This document shows, one piece after another, positions 13,690 to 37,911 of a DNA stretch of 44,041 bases. Both the position numbers and the translations under genes were made by a program. Source of the DNA: an uncultured virus (IMG/VR IMGVR_UViG_3300022660_003376) (lineage: Duplodnaviria > Heunggongvirae > Uroviricota > Caudoviricetes); IMG/VR virus record IMGVR_UViG_3300022660_003376. One strand, given 5' to 3'. The first letter of the stretch is position 1. Each line of letters starts with the position of its first letter. The notes beneath the pieces are model-generated. The model was given only the letters and a program-made list of their open reading frames with translations, was not told the DNA's origin and did not search any database.

Positions 13690-13825
13690 AGTATACCTTG
13701 GAAATTTAATAATATTAAAAACTATAAAATAAATAAATTTCTGCTGATATGTGATTAAAATTATAAGTTAATCTGTTAGGCGGATTATATATAATAAATA
13801 AACGAAAAGGAGAGTGTAAGCTTTT

Positions 13826-17894: not shown

Positions 17895-17924
17895 TAGACT
17901 AGAAAATAGTCTACTTATTCGTTT
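17889..17924 (+). terminator. hairpin/terminator after the helicase gene
   Basis: GAATAGTAGACTA/TAGTCTACTTATTC inverted repeat. Confidence 0.55.
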
Positions 17925-18253
17925 AAATAGTAAATCAGATAGCTTTTGTATAAGAAATTTTATGAGTTAAATTCACATATAGCAAGTTCGGTTTGTGACC
18001 TGTTGTACTCTCAGTTTTGGGTGTTGAACCCCTTTTAGTTCATACTCAAATCAGTAGCAGATAGGCATGAAAAATTAAAGATTTTTGGCATTTTAAGATT
18101 TTTCGTGAATTTTGTAGACTTACTTTTGGGGATAAACTCAATAAAATAAGGGTATCTGATTTAGTGGTAGTTTGGTAATTAGTTGATTGTGGCTAATTAT
18201 GAGGAAGAATTGTATAGCGATATACAAATAGAAAGGAAAAATCGGAGGTAAAT

Positions 18254-31857: not shown

Positions 31858-32090
31858 GGGTATTCATAATTCAAGACTTTTTATTCAAAATAAGATTGCG
31901 AAATTTTAATACAGACATTACGCTAGTTAAGCGGTCTATGAAATAAAACATTAACAAAAATTACGAGTTAATTCATATGACGAAGTTCGGCTCAAAATGT
32001 TTAAGTAATTTCAAATTTTAAAATAAAATTCAGCTGATACTCTTAATAATTGGTGTATCAGCTAAAACTTTGGTTTAAGTGGGAGGCTTT

Positions 32091-32378
32091 ATGGACACGA
32101 GCATTACGAGAGTAGTTATAGATTCGTTCACTCCACAGACAAGTGGTACTTGTGCTGAGGTATCAGTAGTAATAAACGATGCTTTAGCTATACATAAGAT
32201 TTCAGTGATAAGCGGAGAACGAGGGTTATTTGTTGCGATGCCAAATACAGGTCAGACTAAGATGTCTAAGAACGGTAAGCGTTTCTCAGACATAGTTCAC
32301 CCTCTTAATAAGGATTTGGCATCTCAGATATCAGATGCTGTTTTAAATGCATATAATGCAAAATTAAAGAGTAAGTAG
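32091..32378 (+). CDS. spoVG: SpoVG-family nucleic-acid-binding protein
   Basis: IT.V.I...A.VSVVINDALAIHKISVISGERGLFVAMP...FSDIVHPL...I..AVL.AY; GGAGG before ATG 32091. Confidence 0.9.
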   Translation: MDTSITRVVIDSFTPQTSGTCAEVSVVINDALAIHKISVISGERGLFVAMPNTGQTKMSKNGKRFSDIVHPLNKDLASQISDAVLNAYNAKLKSK

Positions 32379-32466: not shown

Positions 32467-34047
32467 TTGGGCAGGGCGAAGATAGTAGAGTATAAAAATG
32501 ATAGATACAAGGGTAGTCTAACTGATGCTCAGTGTGACCAGTTGGAGCGAATAATAGATATAGACAGCAGAGGCGAAGCTTTTCATGATTTAACTCATTT
32601 GATATATGAACTTTCTGAGACAGACACTCATAAGCTTATAACTACTATGGAGGAAGAAGGGCGAGAAGCGGACGATATTGATATGAAGCATGGTACGCTT
32701 ACACCTATGCAAACTACAGGCGTAGCGTATATGTACATAGCTAAGGATTGCATGTTGGGTGACTCGGTTGGTCTTGGTAAGACTATAGAAACTGCTGGTC
32801 TTGTACGTATGTTACAGCAGGAGTATGCACAGCAGGGCAAGGAGTTTAAGTATTTGATGTTGACTGAGAAGAACCTTATAAATCAAACAAGGTTTAAGAT
32901 GGTTCGCTTCACAGGGCAGTATGTGCATAGCTTGGAAGGAGACAAAAAGAGTTGTTCTAATTTTATATCTTGGTATCCTTTCGGGACTAATTTAAGACAT
33001 AGTATAGTGGGTAGTCACACCTTACTTAATCAGCCTGTTTTTACTGCTTGGTTGGCTGAGTGTTATAGTCAGGGTATGTTTCCATTTGATATGTTAATTG
33101 TGGATGAAAGTGCTGTTTTAGGCAATTCCACGGCAGGCATCTCTAAGAACGCATCGATATTAATGCCGTACTTTAATCGTAGGATATTTTTAAACGCTAC
33201 ACCTTTCAAGACTAAGCTTGATAGTTTTTATAATCAGCTTAATTTGTTAGACCCTAAGTTACTGCCAACAAAGACTAATTTCCAAGCTGAGTATGTAATA
33301 TTTGATTATCGAGGAGCATATCGCAAGCCATCGGGTAAGTATAAGAATGCTAATCAGTTTAGGAGACTAATTGGTTATCGTTATTTCGCCAGAACGAGAG
33401 AAGAGAAAGGTGCTGTAATGGAGGGTTGTACTGGTAAGGTTGTTGTTTCACCACTATCCAAGGCACAGAAAGAGTGCTTAAGGAAAACAATGATACCGCA
33501 AATGGTATATGATTGCCCTAGTGCAATAGACCCAGACATAGATTATTGTATGGATAATGTGCCGAAGCTACAGAGTATATATCAACTGCTTACCGAAGAT
33601 TGTGTAGATGCAGAGACAATATTGATATTTGTAAATTACCATGAGGCACAGGAGTGTTTATCTGAGTGGTTGACATGCAATGGGTATTCCAACAGGATAC
33701 TCTGTGGTGAGACTAAAGACGCTGATAGGGTACGCATAATAAATGGTTTTAAGAATGCTGATTTTAGGATTCTTTTAACTAATGTACAGAAAGGTCTTGA
33801 CTTTGGTAATTGTGATTACTGTATATTCTACAGTTTCGACCCAAGTCCAGCAAATATGGTACAGTTCGAGGGTAGAATTACCCGTAGTTTTGACATAATA
33901 AATAAGCATATTATGCTATTATGTTCTGAGGGAAAAGAACTTGATAGATTAAATGATGTTATCAAGGCAAGAGCGAAAGCCAGCTCTGAGTTTACGAAGG
34001 CAGACTTGTCTTGTGTAATGTCGTTATTATTGGATGGTAAAGGATGA
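32467..34047 (+). CDS. SF2 SNF2-like helicase
   Basis: GDSVGLGKT, IVDESA, LNATP, ILIF, KGLDF, QFEGRITR. Confidence 0.85.
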   Translation: MGRAKIVEYKNDRYKGSLTDAQCDQLERIIDIDSRGEAFHDLTHLIYELSETDTHKLITTMEEEGREADDIDMKHGTLTPMQTTGVAYMYIAKDCMLGDSVGLGKTIETAGLVRMLQQEYAQQGKEFKYLMLTEKNLINQTRFKMVRFTGQYVHSLEGDKKSCSNFISWYPFGTNLRHSIVGSHTLLNQPVFTAWLAECYSQGMFPFDMLIVDESAVLGNSTAGISKNASILMPYFNRRIFLNATPFKTKLDSFYNQLNLLDPKLLPTKTNFQAEYVIFDYRGAYRKPSGKYKNANQFRRLIGYRYFARTREEKGAVMEGCTGKVVVSPLSKAQKECLRKTMIPQMVYDCPSAIDPDIDYCMDNVPKLQSIYQLLTEDCVDAETILIFVNYHEAQECLSEWLTCNGYSNRILCGETKDADRVRIINGFKNADFRILLTNVQKGLDFGNCDYCIFYSFDPSPANMVQFEGRITRSFDIINKHIMLLCSEGKELDRLNDVIKARAKASSEFTKADLSCVMSLLLDGKG

Positions 34048-34051
34048 TTTT

Positions 34052-34408
34052 ATGTTTAGAAGAGTTAAACTACCAAATGATGTAGTAAATACAATAAGAA
34101 ACACAACAAGAGATTTTTTAGACTATGCAGTAACTGACGTAAGTAAGCAATTACCACGTGAGTATCATTCAATAAATACTTCAATAAGGCGTATGCGAGA
34201 CGTTTACAGACATTGTTTGTGTCTTGCACTTGGTTTACAGAGTACACCAAACTTCACGGGTATCGATGCGGTGTATCCTTTGTTTACTGCAAGAATGCGT
34301 GAGCAACTGGGTAAATATCTGGAGTGTTCAGAGGAATATCGCAGAGGGGTACTTCAGTTTGGGGTAAATTGTTTTATAGATTTAACTGATTCAAGGAGGG
34401 GTTATTAA
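34052..34408 (+). CDS. hypothetical protein
   Basis: ORF coupled to neighbours (TAATG overlap at 34406-34410). Confidence 0.65.
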   Translation: MFRRVKLPNDVVNTIRNTTRDFLDYAVTDVSKQLPREYHSINTSIRRMRDVYRHCLCLALGLQSTPNFTGIDAVYPLFTARMREQLGKYLECSEEYRRGVLQFGVNCFIDLTDSRRGY

Positions 34409-35274
34409 TGCAACAGCAGACATGTCCATACAACTGTAAGAATGGAAAGGTTATGAACCGAGTTACAAGAAAGATGGAGACTTGTCCTCATTGTGCGGAG
34501 TTAAGGGCGAAGCAGGCAAGAGGCGAGGCGGTATGTGAGGATGGCACATACATATATGACTATCTGAAAGTTCCAGAGAGATATACTGGTTTAGCTTTCA
34601 GCATGGACTTGGTGATACCACCTAAGTTTCAGCAAACTAGGCTTATACCAGAGTCTATAGACGAGGTTGATATAGTACTGAAGTCGTTAATAAATGACGT
34701 AACATTAGGTGAAGTACCTAATAGAACATACTTATTTAACTTAGGTGAATGTGCTGATATTTCAGCCTTTGCGTTTCCTTTCTTAATAAAGGCATACAAG
34801 GCAGGGTTAAAGGTAGCACCGTTAGTAACATCACTGGATTTACAGAGACTGCGTGTAAAGCTTGAGCGTTCATTCGACTTAGACTACACCCCTGTAACAG
34901 TTCTTGAACATTACGGTGATAACTATGACGATTATCTTAATGCAGATGTTTGCGTAGTGGTTCTTGATGCTGGTGCGACTATGAGGGATTTAAATGCAGT
35001 GCGAGGTTTAATAGATAATCGTGCTGACAAAGGTCGTGCAACATTAGTATTTACATATGCGTATTTCGATAGACTGTTTGCATTGTGTACGCATGGTGAT
35101 GAGTTAAGTTTACGTTTGGCTACTTTAATTCAGGTACGTTATCAAAAGCGAGAAAACGGAAGCTCAAATAGGGGTACTAATGCTAGTCAGCAACAACCTA
35201 CGCTATCTTTTGTGCAGGAGATATCAAAGAGAAGTCTTGACACAAACATCGGTATTGCACAGGCAGATTTTTAA
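34408..35274 (+). CDS. Zn-finger plus degenerate DnaC/IstB-like AAA+ protein
   Basis: CPYNCKNG...CPHC, KVPERY, YLNADVCVVVLD, LIDNRADKGRATLVFT; no intact Walker A. Confidence 0.55.
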   Translation: MQQQTCPYNCKNGKVMNRVTRKMETCPHCAELRAKQARGEAVCEDGTYIYDYLKVPERYTGLAFSMDLVIPPKFQQTRLIPESIDEVDIVLKSLINDVTLGEVPNRTYLFNLGECADISAFAFPFLIKAYKAGLKVAPLVTSLDLQRLRVKLERSFDLDYTPVTVLEHYGDNYDDYLNADVCVVVLDAGATMRDLNAVRGLIDNRADKGRATLVFTYAYFDRLFALCTHGDELSLRLATLIQVRYQKRENGSSNRGTNASQQQPTLSFVQEISKRSLDTNIGIAQADF

Positions 35275-35294
35275 AAAATTTTTATAAGACTTGC

Positions 35295-35323
35295 TTGACA
35301 TTGCATAAGAATTGTGTTATAAT
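35295..35323 (+). promoter_or_regulatory. consensus sigma-A promoter P1
   Basis: TTGACA (35295-35300), 17 nt, TATAAT (35318-35323), with extended TG. Confidence 0.9.
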
Positions 35324-35329
35324 ATAGGC

Positions 35330-35435
35330 GTGGTAAAGGAGAACTGTGCGAAATTAGGTTCTTCTTATATAACACCTTGTGATTTAATATAATGTTGTGC
35401 GTGAAGAGGGCAAGTCTTAAGACTTGCCCTTTTTC
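35330..35435 (+). ncRNA. putative small RNA 1 (~105 nt)
   Basis: Lies between P1 and a perfect terminator; 5' hairpin AAGGAGAAC/GTTCTTCTT; ACACCTT tract; no ORF. Confidence 0.55.
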
Positions 35436-35439
35436 TTTT
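35404..35439 (+). terminator. intrinsic terminator
   Basis: AGGGCAAGTC-TTAA-GACTTGCCCT plus TTTTCTTTT. Confidence 0.85.
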
Positions 35440-35462
35440 GATTATATGAGTGAGGTGGTATT

Positions 35463-35762
35463 ATGGGTATAGGTTTGGAAGACAGGAAGAAGGTATTTTA
35501 TAGAATAGTAGATGCTTTTACTCTTATATGTTTTGTAACGTTTTTGTCGCTATGCTTCTTACATAATCTTTGCATAGCTTGTGTGAGTACAAATAAGCTT
35601 TCTGAGGAGATAGCTTATGGTGTTTTAGATATGGTTTCTAAAATCAGACATATATTTAGTGTATACGCTCCAATCACATTAGTTTCGTGTATATTTTGTT
35701 TATGTTGTTGGGTAGTTCGTATTAGAGAGGAGTTTAGATGTAATGGCAAGAGTAAAACTTAA
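35463..35762 (+). CDS. small two-TM membrane protein
   Basis: GAGGTGG RBS; two Cys-rich hydrophobic segments. Confidence 0.7.
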   Translation: MGIGLEDRKKVFYRIVDAFTLICFVTFLSLCFLHNLCIACVSTNKLSEEIAYGVLDMVSKIRHIFSVYAPITLVSCIFCLCCWVVRIREEFRCNGKSKT

Positions 35763-35926
35763 TTGCAAGTGTGCTTTATGTGGTAGTATGTTTGAGCATA
35801 TAAAGTTTTTGAGTAGTAGAGAGCAGGCTGATGCTTATACAAATGCTTAAAAGCTACGGCTTATTTAAGTTGTATATTTGTTTAACTGAGACAAGTGCGG
35901 AAAAGTTATTGCAGGAATTAGCATAG
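35743..35926 (+). pseudogene. probable gene remnant (CxxC N-terminus, broken frame)
   Basis: GAGGAG RBS, MARVKLNCKCALCGSMFEHIKFLSSREQADAYTNA* (35743-35850), then overlapping 27-aa frame 35843-35926. Confidence 0.4.
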
Positions 35927-35933
35927 AAATCTA

Positions 35934-35962
35934 TTGACAAAGTATAAAATATATGCTATAAT
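35934..35962 (+). promoter_or_regulatory. consensus sigma-A promoter P2
   Basis: TTGACA (35934-35939), 17 nt, TATAAT (35957-35962), with extended TG. Confidence 0.9.
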
Positions 35963-35968
35963 TCTAGT

Positions 35969-36045
35969 ATAACATTACACATTATGTAATGTATCTCCTA
36001 GTATGAGCCGTGCTTTACTGACCGAAGCATGGCTCATGTTATTTA
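35969..36045 (+). ncRNA. putative small RNA 2 (~75 nt)
   Basis: Hairpin ACATTACA/TGTAATGT, unpaired ATCTCCTA, then hairpin ATGAGCCGTGCTT/AAGCATGGCTCAT; no ORF. Confidence 0.6.
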
Positions 36046-36051
36046 TTATAC

Positions 36052-36080
36052 TTGACAAATAGAACTATGTATGCTATAAT
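36052..36080 (+). promoter_or_regulatory. consensus sigma-A promoter P3
   Basis: TTGACA (36052-36057), 17 nt, TATAAT (36075-36080), with extended TG. Confidence 0.9.
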
Positions 36081-36086
36081 AGGTGT

Positions 36087-36190
36087 ACCATGTGATAGTC
36101 ACTTATAAAGAGGTACTCCTTACTTCATGATTATCATTATGCTTAATTTTTTCTTTAGACCATACTCACTAACATGAGTATGGTTTTTCT
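36087..36190 (+). ncRNA. putative small RNA 3 (~100 nt)
   Basis: Stem TGATAGTCA/TGATTATCA enclosing ACTCCTT; terminator AGACCATACTCA/TGAGTATGGTTT plus T tract. Confidence 0.55.
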
Positions 36191-36330
36191 ATTATATTAT
36201 ACAGAGGAGTTTCTAATAGTAAGTTATTTATGCAGAAATAAGTATAGGTTCGGCACGTTTCATAAGTTTTTGTATAAAACGTGTTGTTTTGTATATTAAT
36301 AAATTCTTATTTAAAGAAAGGGGTATTCCT

Positions 36331-37746
36331 TTGAATAATATAAAATTAGAGATATCAGACTTTTTAAGTTACTATGATTTAAACGGTGATGAGGCTATAG
36401 AGAGTGCTCATGTTGAGAGATTAGAAAACTTTATATATCAATGCAACAAGGCTATGGTTGATGGCACACCTTTAGTAGCTGATGCTATATACGATAGATT
36501 GTACGATATATTAAAGACCGTCAATCCCGATTCGAGATATTTAAAAGAATTGTGGTCGGATGCAGATGAGGTTGAAGACGAGGAGTTTATAAATGATGAC
36601 TTACAGCTCCATTTACGCACAAGCCCTATGCTAAGTATCTGTACATGTAAGTCATATGATTGTCAGGAGTTACTCGATTTCGTAAAGAGACTTCCTGATA
36701 ACACACCATTTGACGCACATATTTCCTGTAAGGAGAATGGACATGGTATAAGAATAGTATACAAAGATGGTGCTTATGTAAGTGCTACAAGTAGAGCAAG
36801 ACGGTCTGCAGGTCATGATATAACAAAGCAAATGGGTATAATCCTTGCAAATCAGGGTCTTGACTATATAGAAGACTTTGCAGAGCGTGGTATAGTTGAG
36901 GTTCGTGGTGAGGTTGTACTACCTTTAAGTAAGTTAAGTGATGCAAGAGCGTATAACCCAACAATAGCTTCTGCATTCTCAGGGGTATCATCTATGTTAA
37001 GAGACAGTGCTACTCCAGAGGAGAATTTACTGCTTAACTTTATTGCATACAAGGTATTATTTGATGATGCTGAGTTTGAAACAAAGTCTGAGGAGTACAA
37101 TTATCTCGATAGTTTAGGCTTTACAGTACCTTTACATTGGCTTGTAGAGGGTCTTACAAAGGAGACTTTGCTCGCAGAGTTACCTAGTATAGTAAGTGAC
37201 TGCGAAGACTCAGTATTGGGCGAAAACGGTGATGAAGCTTATGACTATTACACAGACGGTCTAGTATTCGAGTTAGACGACAGAGAATTATTTTATTCTT
37301 TGGGTGGTGACTCTAAATACAATTATGGTAATGTAGCCTTAAAAGTGGGGTATTGGAAGCAGGATATGCTTTCAGGTTATGTGCAGTGTATAATGTGGAC
37401 TGACGGAAAGGTTAAGTACTCCCCTGTTGCTATAGTTGCTGAAGAGCCAGACATGATTGAATTTGAAGACTTGGATAATCACGACTATATTAAATCTCAG
37501 AGTGAAATTTCCAACTGGAGTGAGTTGGGTGTTGCAACTCAGAACGGTAATAGGGTGAGACGAATACCTTTATATGAGCCAAACAACATTGCTATACTGA
37601 ATGCAGTTGTGGGTAATATACTGCACTTTAGGTATGGTGGTGAAGCAGGGGTAGTTCCTTGTTTCAGTGATGGTACACCGTTATCTGAGGGTCGCATTTC
37701 TCAGATATTTGAGGATGAGGAAGATGCTTGGGATTATGGTGACTAG
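36331..37746 (+). CDS. divergent NAD-dependent DNA ligase-like protein (Ia, adenylation and OB domains only)
   Basis: DAIYDRL, PMLSI, motif I CKENG, EVRGE, TDGLV, ALK, SPVA; no Zn/HhH/BRCT; TTG 36331 follows AAAGGGG. Confidence 0.8.
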   Translation: MNNIKLEISDFLSYYDLNGDEAIESAHVERLENFIYQCNKAMVDGTPLVADAIYDRLYDILKTVNPDSRYLKELWSDADEVEDEEFINDDLQLHLRTSPMLSICTCKSYDCQELLDFVKRLPDNTPFDAHISCKENGHGIRIVYKDGAYVSATSRARRSAGHDITKQMGIILANQGLDYIEDFAERGIVEVRGEVVLPLSKLSDARAYNPTIASAFSGVSSMLRDSATPEENLLLNFIAYKVLFDDAEFETKSEEYNYLDSLGFTVPLHWLVEGLTKETLLAELPSIVSDCEDSVLGENGDEAYDYYTDGLVFELDDRELFYSLGGDSKYNYGNVALKVGYWKQDMLSGYVQCIMWTDGKVKYSPVAIVAEEPDMIEFEDLDNHDYIKSQSEISNWSELGVATQNGNRVRRIPLYEPNNIAILNAVVGNILHFRYGGEAGVVPCFSDGTPLSEGRISQIFEDEEDAWDYGD

Positions 37747-37758
37747 GGTATTCGGATT

Positions 37759-37795
37759 AGAGTTATGTTCTTAGGGGCATAACTCTTTATTTTTA
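37759..37795 (+). terminator. intrinsic terminator
   Basis: AGAGTTATGTTC/GGGCATAACTCT stem plus TTATTTTT. Confidence 0.7.
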
Positions 37796-37911
37796 CATTT
37801 ACGTATTATGAGATTTTATTTAATAAATCTCATGTTTATATAAGGTGTTTCAAAAATTTTATGATACTTTGGTAATAAGATAAATAAATCTATGAATATA
37901 GAGGTGATGCT

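Follow-up and report, generated by a model that had tools for sequence, protein, structure and literature searches.

In the pR'-tR' (6S RNA)/Q and N/nut arrangements of phage lambda, a strong promoter gives a short terminated RNA without an open reading frame (ORF), and read-through is needed for expression of the genes behind it. Small RNAs (sRNAs) of the RsaE/RoxS type in Bacillota have their own promoter, a 5' hairpin, an unpaired pyrimidine-rich tract and a terminator hairpin, and target Shine-Dalgarno (SD) sequences. In the fold-back inhibition of IS10, upstream sequence in RNA started outside the element pairs over a long range and hides the start codon, silencing outside transcripts. 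One report describes, in the giant phages 201phi2-1 and phiKZ, start-then-terminate units that give RNAs of less than 250 nucleotides (nt), intergenic or derived from 5' untranslated regions (5'UTRs) and of unknown function, including 11 sRNAs of 201phi2-1 from short units with a terminator directly after the start site (PMC11512511). Here, we analyse a stretch of 44,041 nt, referred to as the window, from an uncultured virus (IMG/VR record IMGVR_UViG_3300022660_003376), in which three units of this kind, U1 to U3, lie upstream of a DNA ligase gene. We tentatively favour the reading that they are insulated early small-RNA genes of a huge phage, for which the short units of 201phi2-1 would be a precedent (PMC11512511).

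Perfect sigma-A promoters (TTGACA, 17-nt spacer, TATAAT) with a TG one base before the -10 hexamer occur exactly three times in the window, all on the plus strand and within 790 bp, against 0.10 expected by shuffling and none of 100 shuffles with three or more. An earlier reading of the sequence alone had singled out these promoters, at 35295, 35934 and 36052, as the only perfect ones noticed in the window and had placed a strong hairpin after each; both points held, with all coordinates correct. The promoters, the hairpins and the RNAs that they would delimit are as follows.

35262..35294, plus strand: A/T-rich stretch before P1 resembling an UP element, as judged from sequence; its last 10 nt (35285-35294) are an exact repeat of the T1 3' arm
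35295-35323, plus strand: promoter P1, with a perfect -35 hexamer, 17-nt spacer and TG-extended perfect -10 hexamer
35330..35440, plus strand: u1, predicted RNA of ~110 nt, with a 5' hairpin (35336-35366), a weak middle hairpin (35368-35399) and T1
35403-35434, plus strand: T1, predicted intrinsic terminator of 14 bp (6 GC), with a U tract to ~35439
35934-35962, plus strand: promoter P2, perfect and extended
35969..36049, plus strand: u2, predicted RNA of ~80 nt, with an 8-bp hairpin (35972-35992), a single-stranded AUCUCC linker (35993-35998) and T2
35999-36041, plus strand: T2, predicted terminator of 18 bp (6 GC), with a weaker U tract
36052-36080, plus strand: promoter P3, perfect and extended, its -35 hexamer beginning 10 nt after the T2 stem
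36087..36193, plus strand: u3, predicted RNA of ~105 nt, with a long hairpin (36089-36141) holding an SD-like/CUCCUU pair, a U-rich linker and T3
36157-36186, plus strand: T3, predicted terminator of 12 bp (4 GC)

The terminator stems begin 79 (T1), 36 (T2) and 76 nt (T3) past the -10 hexamer. The predicted folds of u1 (-36.0 kcal/mol, z-score -4.88), u2 (-30.0 kcal/mol, z -6.65) and u3 (-28.8 kcal/mol, z -5.12) were in each case equalled by none of 200 shuffled sequences. As had been supposed before, no credible ORF is present: none of at least 25 amino acids (aa) with a ribosome-binding site lies inside any unit. By sequence prediction, each unit thus has what a stand-alone sRNA gene has, namely its own promoter, its own intrinsic terminator and no credible ORF, and three abundant ORF-less short RNAs are probably made from P1-P3. 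The comparison with known RNA families to which the sequence-only reading had pointed was carried out with Rfam 15 and gave no match at the gathering score in the whole window. In a permissive scan of 35200-36400 (E up to 10), the best match was L20_leader (RF00558), with 26.1 bits against a gathering score of 58.7. Although u1 (35330-35443) aligns to this family end to end, sharing a purine-rich 5' hairpin and a terminator, the likeness is one of generic architecture only; the alignment lacks some 20 nt of the core, and u1 was rejected as a ribosomal protein L20 leader.

According to the favoured reading, host RNA polymerase would make u1-u3 upon DNA entry, at sigma-A promoters of maximal strength that each run into a strong intrinsic terminator, and the units would be insulated from the adjoining protein genes instead of serving them. 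RNA started at P1, for which no fold that removes T1 was found, would stop there, while RNA started upstream, in the helicase operon, would sequester the 5' arm of T1 before the 3' arm is made and would read into the gene for a 99-aa protein. RNA leaking past T3 would fold back on the ligase start codon. The three RNAs would then act in trans, through exposed CU-rich tracts (clearest in u2) pairing with SD regions of phage or host mRNAs. The features on which the insulation would depend are listed here.

32467-34047, plus strand: SNF2 helicase gene, from a profile match
35285..35419, plus strand: long-range helix set in which the promoter region (35285-35328) pairs with 35376-35419, the 3' half of u1 and the T1 5' arm
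35463..35762, plus strand: gene for a 99-aa small membrane-type protein, 29 nt behind T1, with its SD at 35451-35457
36187..36351, plus strand: fold-back joining 36187-36213, just behind T3, to 36320-36351 around the ligase start, in a closed structure of 165 nt
36331..37746, plus strand: NAD-dependent DNA ligase gene (PHROG 3869, E 5.7e-29; 648 homologues)

At U1, the helix set between promoter and RNA comprises 34 pairs, nine of which are G-U. Folded as RNA, 35283-35421 forms one long near-continuous hairpin of 139 nt (-47.3 kcal/mol, z -6.72), compared with -23.4 for the opposite strand. The helix that competes with the terminator pairs 35285-35296 with 35408-35419 and, along with further helices, takes the 5' arm of T1; an exact 10-mer repeat joins the 35285 and 35418 regions. 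The P1 flank adds -31.5 kcal/mol, as against -11.5 +/- 2.8 for shuffled flanks (0/300 as good), and the gain falls to only -8.1 or -12.7 when P2 or P3 is swapped in for it. Within RNA started at P1, no alternative fold that removes T1 was found in the one condition folded: blocking the 5' arm of u1 still leaves T1 with 9 bp and its U tract. The P1-started RNA also keeps T1 in its minimum free energy (MFE) structure. Judged by these folds, U1 is not a classical attenuator, in which the antiterminator lies inside the RNA from its own promoter; here the T1-competing helix needs sequence upstream of the start site. Since the promoter-built arm requires an upstream start, only P1-started RNA should stop at T1, and no strong terminator was found in the upstream helicase operon before P1. 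The possibility that U1 is a single-stranded-DNA hairpin promoter of the Frpo type was rejected, as only 2/6 positions of the -35 and 3/6 of the -10 hexamer are paired and the nine G-U pairs would be weak in DNA.

A different structure closes off the ligase. The fold-back behind T3 (MFE -39.8, z -4.60) was matched by none of 300 flank shuffles, and the probability that the ligase start region is unpaired falls to 0.08 within it, from ~0.3 in shorter RNAs. With its start region so buried, leak-through RNA from P3 should translate the ligase poorly. Taken together, the predicted insulation around U1 and U3 fits stand-alone RNAs better than simple leaders. Enclosed by the fold-back, between T3 and the ligase ribosome-binding site, is a further hairpin (36251-36286; 10+3 bp, with a U-rich run after it) that may be the third terminator-type hairpin in the series. 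Behind T3, the segment 36200-36212 holds a GAGGAG ribosome-binding site with no start codon after it and is a 12/13 copy of 35723-35735, which precedes a 35-aa ORF; a small gene since lost may have left it behind. Around U2, the -35 flanks of P2 and P3 form a 14-bp helix that encloses u2 (gain -15.0 vs -5.3 +/- 2.1 in shuffles, 0/300 as good), and a closing helix at U3 brings a gain of -10.9, with 6/300 shuffles as good and an equally good helix on the minus strand. An ATTATA motif follows 4-7 nt after all three unit terminators and after none of nine other terminators.

Strain variation bears most directly on U1. Contigs of four other runs were compared over 34400-37800, with 40 of the 207 differences listed. 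In the run X10, a contig over 35145-35687 has 22 differences, at least 21 of which lie outside 35224-35443. At most one change thus falls in these 220 nt, which reach from the UP-like stretch to the end of T1, as against 21 in 323 flanking nt (~6.5%); about nine would be expected there at the pooled rate. Promoter and transcribed part of U1 are equally conserved in this comparison. The region of the 99-aa gene (35444-35762) varies strongly, with 18 differences in 244 nt in X10, behind a unit that is nearly invariant. In the run X15, the sequences cease to be alike at 35439, immediately past T1, where another gene start of similar organisation, again with an SD and ATG, takes over; this run gives no coverage of 35540-35653. 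Changes in the second unit comprise a 1-nt deletion at 35982, in the loop of the U2 5' hairpin (X10 and X15), a T>A at 35965, between the P2 -10 hexamer and the start site (three runs), and a 1-nt deletion at 36048 that removes the ATTATA after T2 in a low-depth contig of X15. The P2 stretch 35927-35963 is matched at 80% or more, in all four runs, by several unrelated contigs that continue with unlike sequence, with a summed depth of 43 in X8; these matches probably reflect AT-rich promoters of a similar kind, either in other members of the community or elsewhere in the phage genome.

Beyond near-identical strains, the units appear to be confined to this phage. Among 80 related loci (613 kb), a strong promoter followed by a terminator within 150 nt was found in 0/20 cases, against 3/4 in the window, these being the three perfect promoters. 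A looser cut-off, under which the relatives show 198 promoter-like sites and 92 terminators, yielded a single pair in them against three in the window. The layout is thus lineage-specific, judging by the sequences compared, and the suggestion that similar promoter-terminator units be gathered from relatives yielded that one pair. The wider idea of an RNA-based control system of a giant mobile element found no support, the element being a phage and the units being absent from the 80 related loci. In the synteny comparison, the 29928 gene, the ligase and the 40581 gene form a conserved backbone with variable filling in between, and the helicase block with the promoter cluster was found only in the source phage among the related loci. 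Searches for relatives of the units by megablast and blastn against 50,697 phage records returned nothing but a 46-nt chance match, and blastn of 35201-36340 against the 80 loci gave promoter-level matches only. In IMG/VR, the exact T1 and T2 patterns, the upstream gene product and the ligase alone had no match, while the ligase alignment retrieved one distant locus; the ligase profile had none in species-representative genomes.

The proposed action in trans depends on the pyrimidine tracts. Exposed CUCC-type tracts resemble the anti-SD tail of the ribosome, and the sequence-only reading had described a shared layout in which each RNA carries a tract complementary to an SD. The tracts stand where it had put them, but only that of u2 is clearly single-stranded (probability of being unpaired 0.93-1.0). 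CTCCT occurs eight times on the plus strand of the 44 kb, two of the copies lying in u2 and u3, and CACCT, the u1 type, is commoner, with 22 in the window. When contiguous helices with the 41 translation-initiation regions of the window were compared, the best all fell on SD sequences: those of the ParB-HNH gene for u1, the FtsK-like gene for u2 and the 21519 gene for u3. The observed score was reached by 46/1460 (u1), 19/1451 (u2) and 60/1465 (u3) natural control segments, placing these helices in the top 1.3-4.1%, and by 64, 52 and 156 of 1500 shuffles. The earlier idea that the RNAs occlude ribosome-binding sites in trans is compatible with these ranks, which fall well short of proof; any pyrimidine tract would pair in this way. 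Anti-SD action is plausible, most clearly for u2. Long interrupted duplexes predicted with duplexfold, between u1 and the 29016 gene (-34.0; reached by at least 1/40 shuffles and 0/57 natural segments), between u3 and the 21519 gene (-35.6; 0/40 and 3/58) and for u2 (-20.2; 9/60 natural segments), are ambiguous and were given little weight. As a candidate RNA anti-CRISPR repeat mimic, the u2 hairpin was rejected: its 17-nt core had one match each in 70 loci, about the chance level, and no arrays, in a search for exact matches with the u2 hairpin only.

Several observations weigh against insulated small-RNA genes. A distance of 29 nt, without a promoter, separates T1 from the start of the 99-aa gene. 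No sigma-A-like promoter is evident from T3 to the ligase, whereas by eye a sigma-A-like -10 hexamer stands 25-45 nt before the gene in several relatives; this difference favours P2 and P3 as the ligase promoters. The pyrimidine tracts of u1 and u3 are about half paired (0.48 and 0.52), the target statistics are modest and post hoc, and the middle of u1 may owe its shape to pairing with the promoter region and not to a target in trans. The full-length MFE favours T1 (-51.4) over the forced antiterminator (-47.3) by ~4 kcal/mol; because the complete RNA still prefers T1, its bypass by upstream-started RNA would have to be kinetic, resting on the order of folding. Finally, no unit homologue was found beyond near-identical strains in the loci and collections searched. 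A fuller version of the proposal is seen as rather unlikely: that a start-site-aware terminator nests u1 in an operon, and that a trio of early RNAs with CUCC-type tracts reprogrammes translation initiation on host or phage replication-module mRNAs during takeover.

The most serious competitor, doubtful as it seems, holds that the units are conditional leaders, with P1 serving the 99-aa gene and P2/P3 the ligase, and with T1-T3 as regulatory terminators that halt host polymerase early and are overridden later, in the manner of phage lambda, by a phage antitermination factor or RNA element, so that the short RNAs would be by-products like the 6S RNA of lambda. The missing promoters before the two genes, the good SD of the 99-aa gene, the three hairpins with U-rich runs in series before the ligase and the promoter-leader-terminator head that X15 keeps before a diverging gene all agree with it, and a hairpin and pyrimidine tract between promoter and terminator recall nut-type sites. 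In 201phi2-1, moreover, eight of the 11 short units are 5'UTR-derived (PMC11512511). Against this reading, no fold that removes T1 was found within P1-started RNA, and the only T1-competing fold found depends on sequence upstream of the P1 start site; at U3, read-through RNA would bury the ligase start codon, and a single leader would not normally comprise two full promoter-terminator units in tandem (U2 and U3). The window proteins scanned (21 against PHROGs and 37 against Pfam) gave no Q-, N- or NusG-like family, a weak point given that most of them are without a family. The closed structures suggest another, improbable explanation, in which the units are processing or stability cassettes whose long helices are sites for double-strand-specific RNases in operon RNA, where cuts would set free or stabilise pieces and activate or silence the next gene, with the internal promoters secondary. 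The 139-nt hairpin at U1, the enclosing helices at U2 and U3, the 165-nt structure from T3 to the ligase start and the recurrent ATTATA would all find a place in it. It leaves three perfect promoters with an UP-like element unexplained, however, and the U2 helix would require read-through of an 18-bp terminator; the U3 helix, equal on the minus strand, could reflect DNA symmetry or chance, and the deletion in the low-depth X15 contig takes away the ATTATA after T2.

Transcription itself, or the promoter DNA, might alternatively be the function, as a polymerase sink for host takeover, for local activation of replication or for RNA primers, with RNAs that have no sequence-specific role. We regard this as quite improbable, even though maximal-strength promoters whose products are terminated at once, and insulation from the adjoining genes, fit it equally well, and the cluster lies among replication genes, flanked by that for the SNF2 helicase on its upstream side and the ligase gene on its downstream side and close to primase-type, DnaB-type and topoisomerase II genes. 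The units sit in a variable accessory segment that is absent from related phages, and the transcribed part of U1 is conserved like its promoter. A replication origin at the units was rejected, as GC skew is positive in every 1-kb bin (0.16-0.39) with no turn in the window, and neither iterons nor tandem repeats were found in 35100-36450. We consider it least probable of all that U1-U3 code for very small peptides or make up a cassette of the toxin-antitoxin kind, with abundant RNA, leaky terminator and small membrane protein. By eye, u1 has a 3-codon frame in its hairpin loop behind an SD-like AAGGAG, and u3 a 16-codon hydrophobic frame, but the SD-like tract of the latter is 13 nt from its ATG and its stop lies inside T3. 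The order promoter-RNA-terminator-protein is that of type III toxin-antitoxin loci, and the 99-aa protein, of a two-helix membrane type, varies fast between strains. A type III (ToxIN-like) system was rejected all the same, since u1 lacks tandem repeats and the 99-aa protein has no family in the PHROGs and Pfam scans (PADLOC was not searched), its best Atlas score of 0.80 being at chance level; nor would a type I antisense pairing be possible with all parts on one strand. The insulated small-RNA genes remain the reading that we tentatively prefer.

We read the phage itself as huge and uncultured, with a Bacillota host in the animal gut; this reading is drawn from a SpoVG gene, strong GGAGG-type ribosome-binding sites and sigma-A-type promoters. 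All long ORFs of the window are on the plus strand and, with the uniform skew, this places the window well inside one replication/transcription arm. Profile matches (PHROGs, Pfam) include two topoisomerase II subunits, a DnaB-type helicase, an FtsK-like protein, an exonuclease of the RNase T type, a DnaG zinc ribbon, a ParB-HNH protein and a SpoVG homologue. The best topoisomerase matches, with 32-34% identity, are to Geobacillus virus E3 and to uncultured phages from faeces, and no cultured phage is close. The 648 ligase homologues lie on contigs of up to 474 kb, the closest at 99, 75 and 73% identity, and the N-termini of those aligned indicate TTG 36331 as the likely start; 79 related metagenome loci are on contigs of up to 360 kb, and the DNA of the window recurs in DNA sequencing runs on faeces and bovine gut from several studies, no RNA run being among the 21 runs listed. 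One further small frame lies between the first two units.

35743..35850, plus strand: 35-aa ORF overlapping the 3' end of the 99-aa gene, with no family in PHROGs or Pfam

Some features of the surrounding DNA are recorded in their own right. SpoVG is a nucleic-acid-binding regulator of Bacillota, and its homologue in the window (32091-32378, Pfam E 6.8e-20), 3 kb upstream of the RNA units, has a 233-nt non-coding stretch before it (31858-32090) and two terminator-like hairpins after it. The second-longest non-coding gap of the window (17895-18253, 359 nt), after a terminator and before the 18254 gene, holds several hairpins and has no Rfam match at the gathering score. The motif TTATAAG(T) is found at 13761, 16310, 25986 and 35282 (and, with one mismatch, at 36258), often 63-85 nt before a start codon, and seven of its ten plus-strand copies fall within the ~3.6 kb of non-coding DNA of the window, so that a promoter element specific to the phage may be involved. 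A role as promoter throughout the phage family was rejected, on a weak enrichment in relatives (45/158 copies outside ORFs, where non-ORF DNA makes up 16% of bases).

The possible significance of the locus follows from its setting. Cataloguing of the sRNAs of huge phages has barely started, and for phages of gut Bacillota there is next to no knowledge of them. If the RNAs are made, they would be candidate early takeover factors that need no protein synthesis. A promoter-embedded antiterminator, if true, would be a compact design rule for placing a strong-terminator RNA gene inside an operon without breaking the operon, and could serve in synthetic biology as a terminator that discriminates between promoters. 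Should the units instead be leaders under antitermination control, they would show where the switch from early to middle expression lies in a phage family without cultured members.

Among known systems, phage lambda has the same layout; no Q- or N-like family appeared in the window protein scans and no binding site for such a protein was identified, and the only bypass found at U1 relies on an RNA helix that takes in sequence from before the P1 start site. The likeness to IS10, for which a literature search on fold-back inhibition returned nothing, is that only the outside-started RNA carries the pairing sequence; the fold-back behind T3 on the ligase start would work in the same sense. IS10 differs from U1 in that it hides a start codon to silence outside transcripts, whereas U1 would hide a terminator arm to let them pass. 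The promoter-embedded antiterminator appears, on present sequence evidence, to be a new variant, no description of which was found. The RsaE/RoxS type is best matched in layout by u2, but its members have several C-runs where a single CUCC-type tract is present here, and u1-u3 are phage-borne, with no Rfam match to that type at E up to 10. SPO1 is likewise a large Bacillota phage with early transcription by host sigma-A and clustered strong early promoters and terminators; its early units encode small proteins, whereas U1-U3 hold no credible ORF. Published work on SPO1 deals with its host-takeover module and early sigma-A promoters (PMC13401047, PMC6873191). The units of 201phi2-1 and phiKZ share with U1-U3 the giant phage and the terminator immediately after the start, and differ in having phage promoters and a Pseudomonas host and in being known from RNA sequencing, where U1-U3 are predicted units at clustered perfect host sigma-A promoters with no sequence relation to them (PMC11512511). 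Phage sRNAs with their own promoter and terminator are in sum a known kind, of which the cluster of three seen here, each behind a perfect promoter of the host type and all in one huge phage of Bacillota, is a new case.

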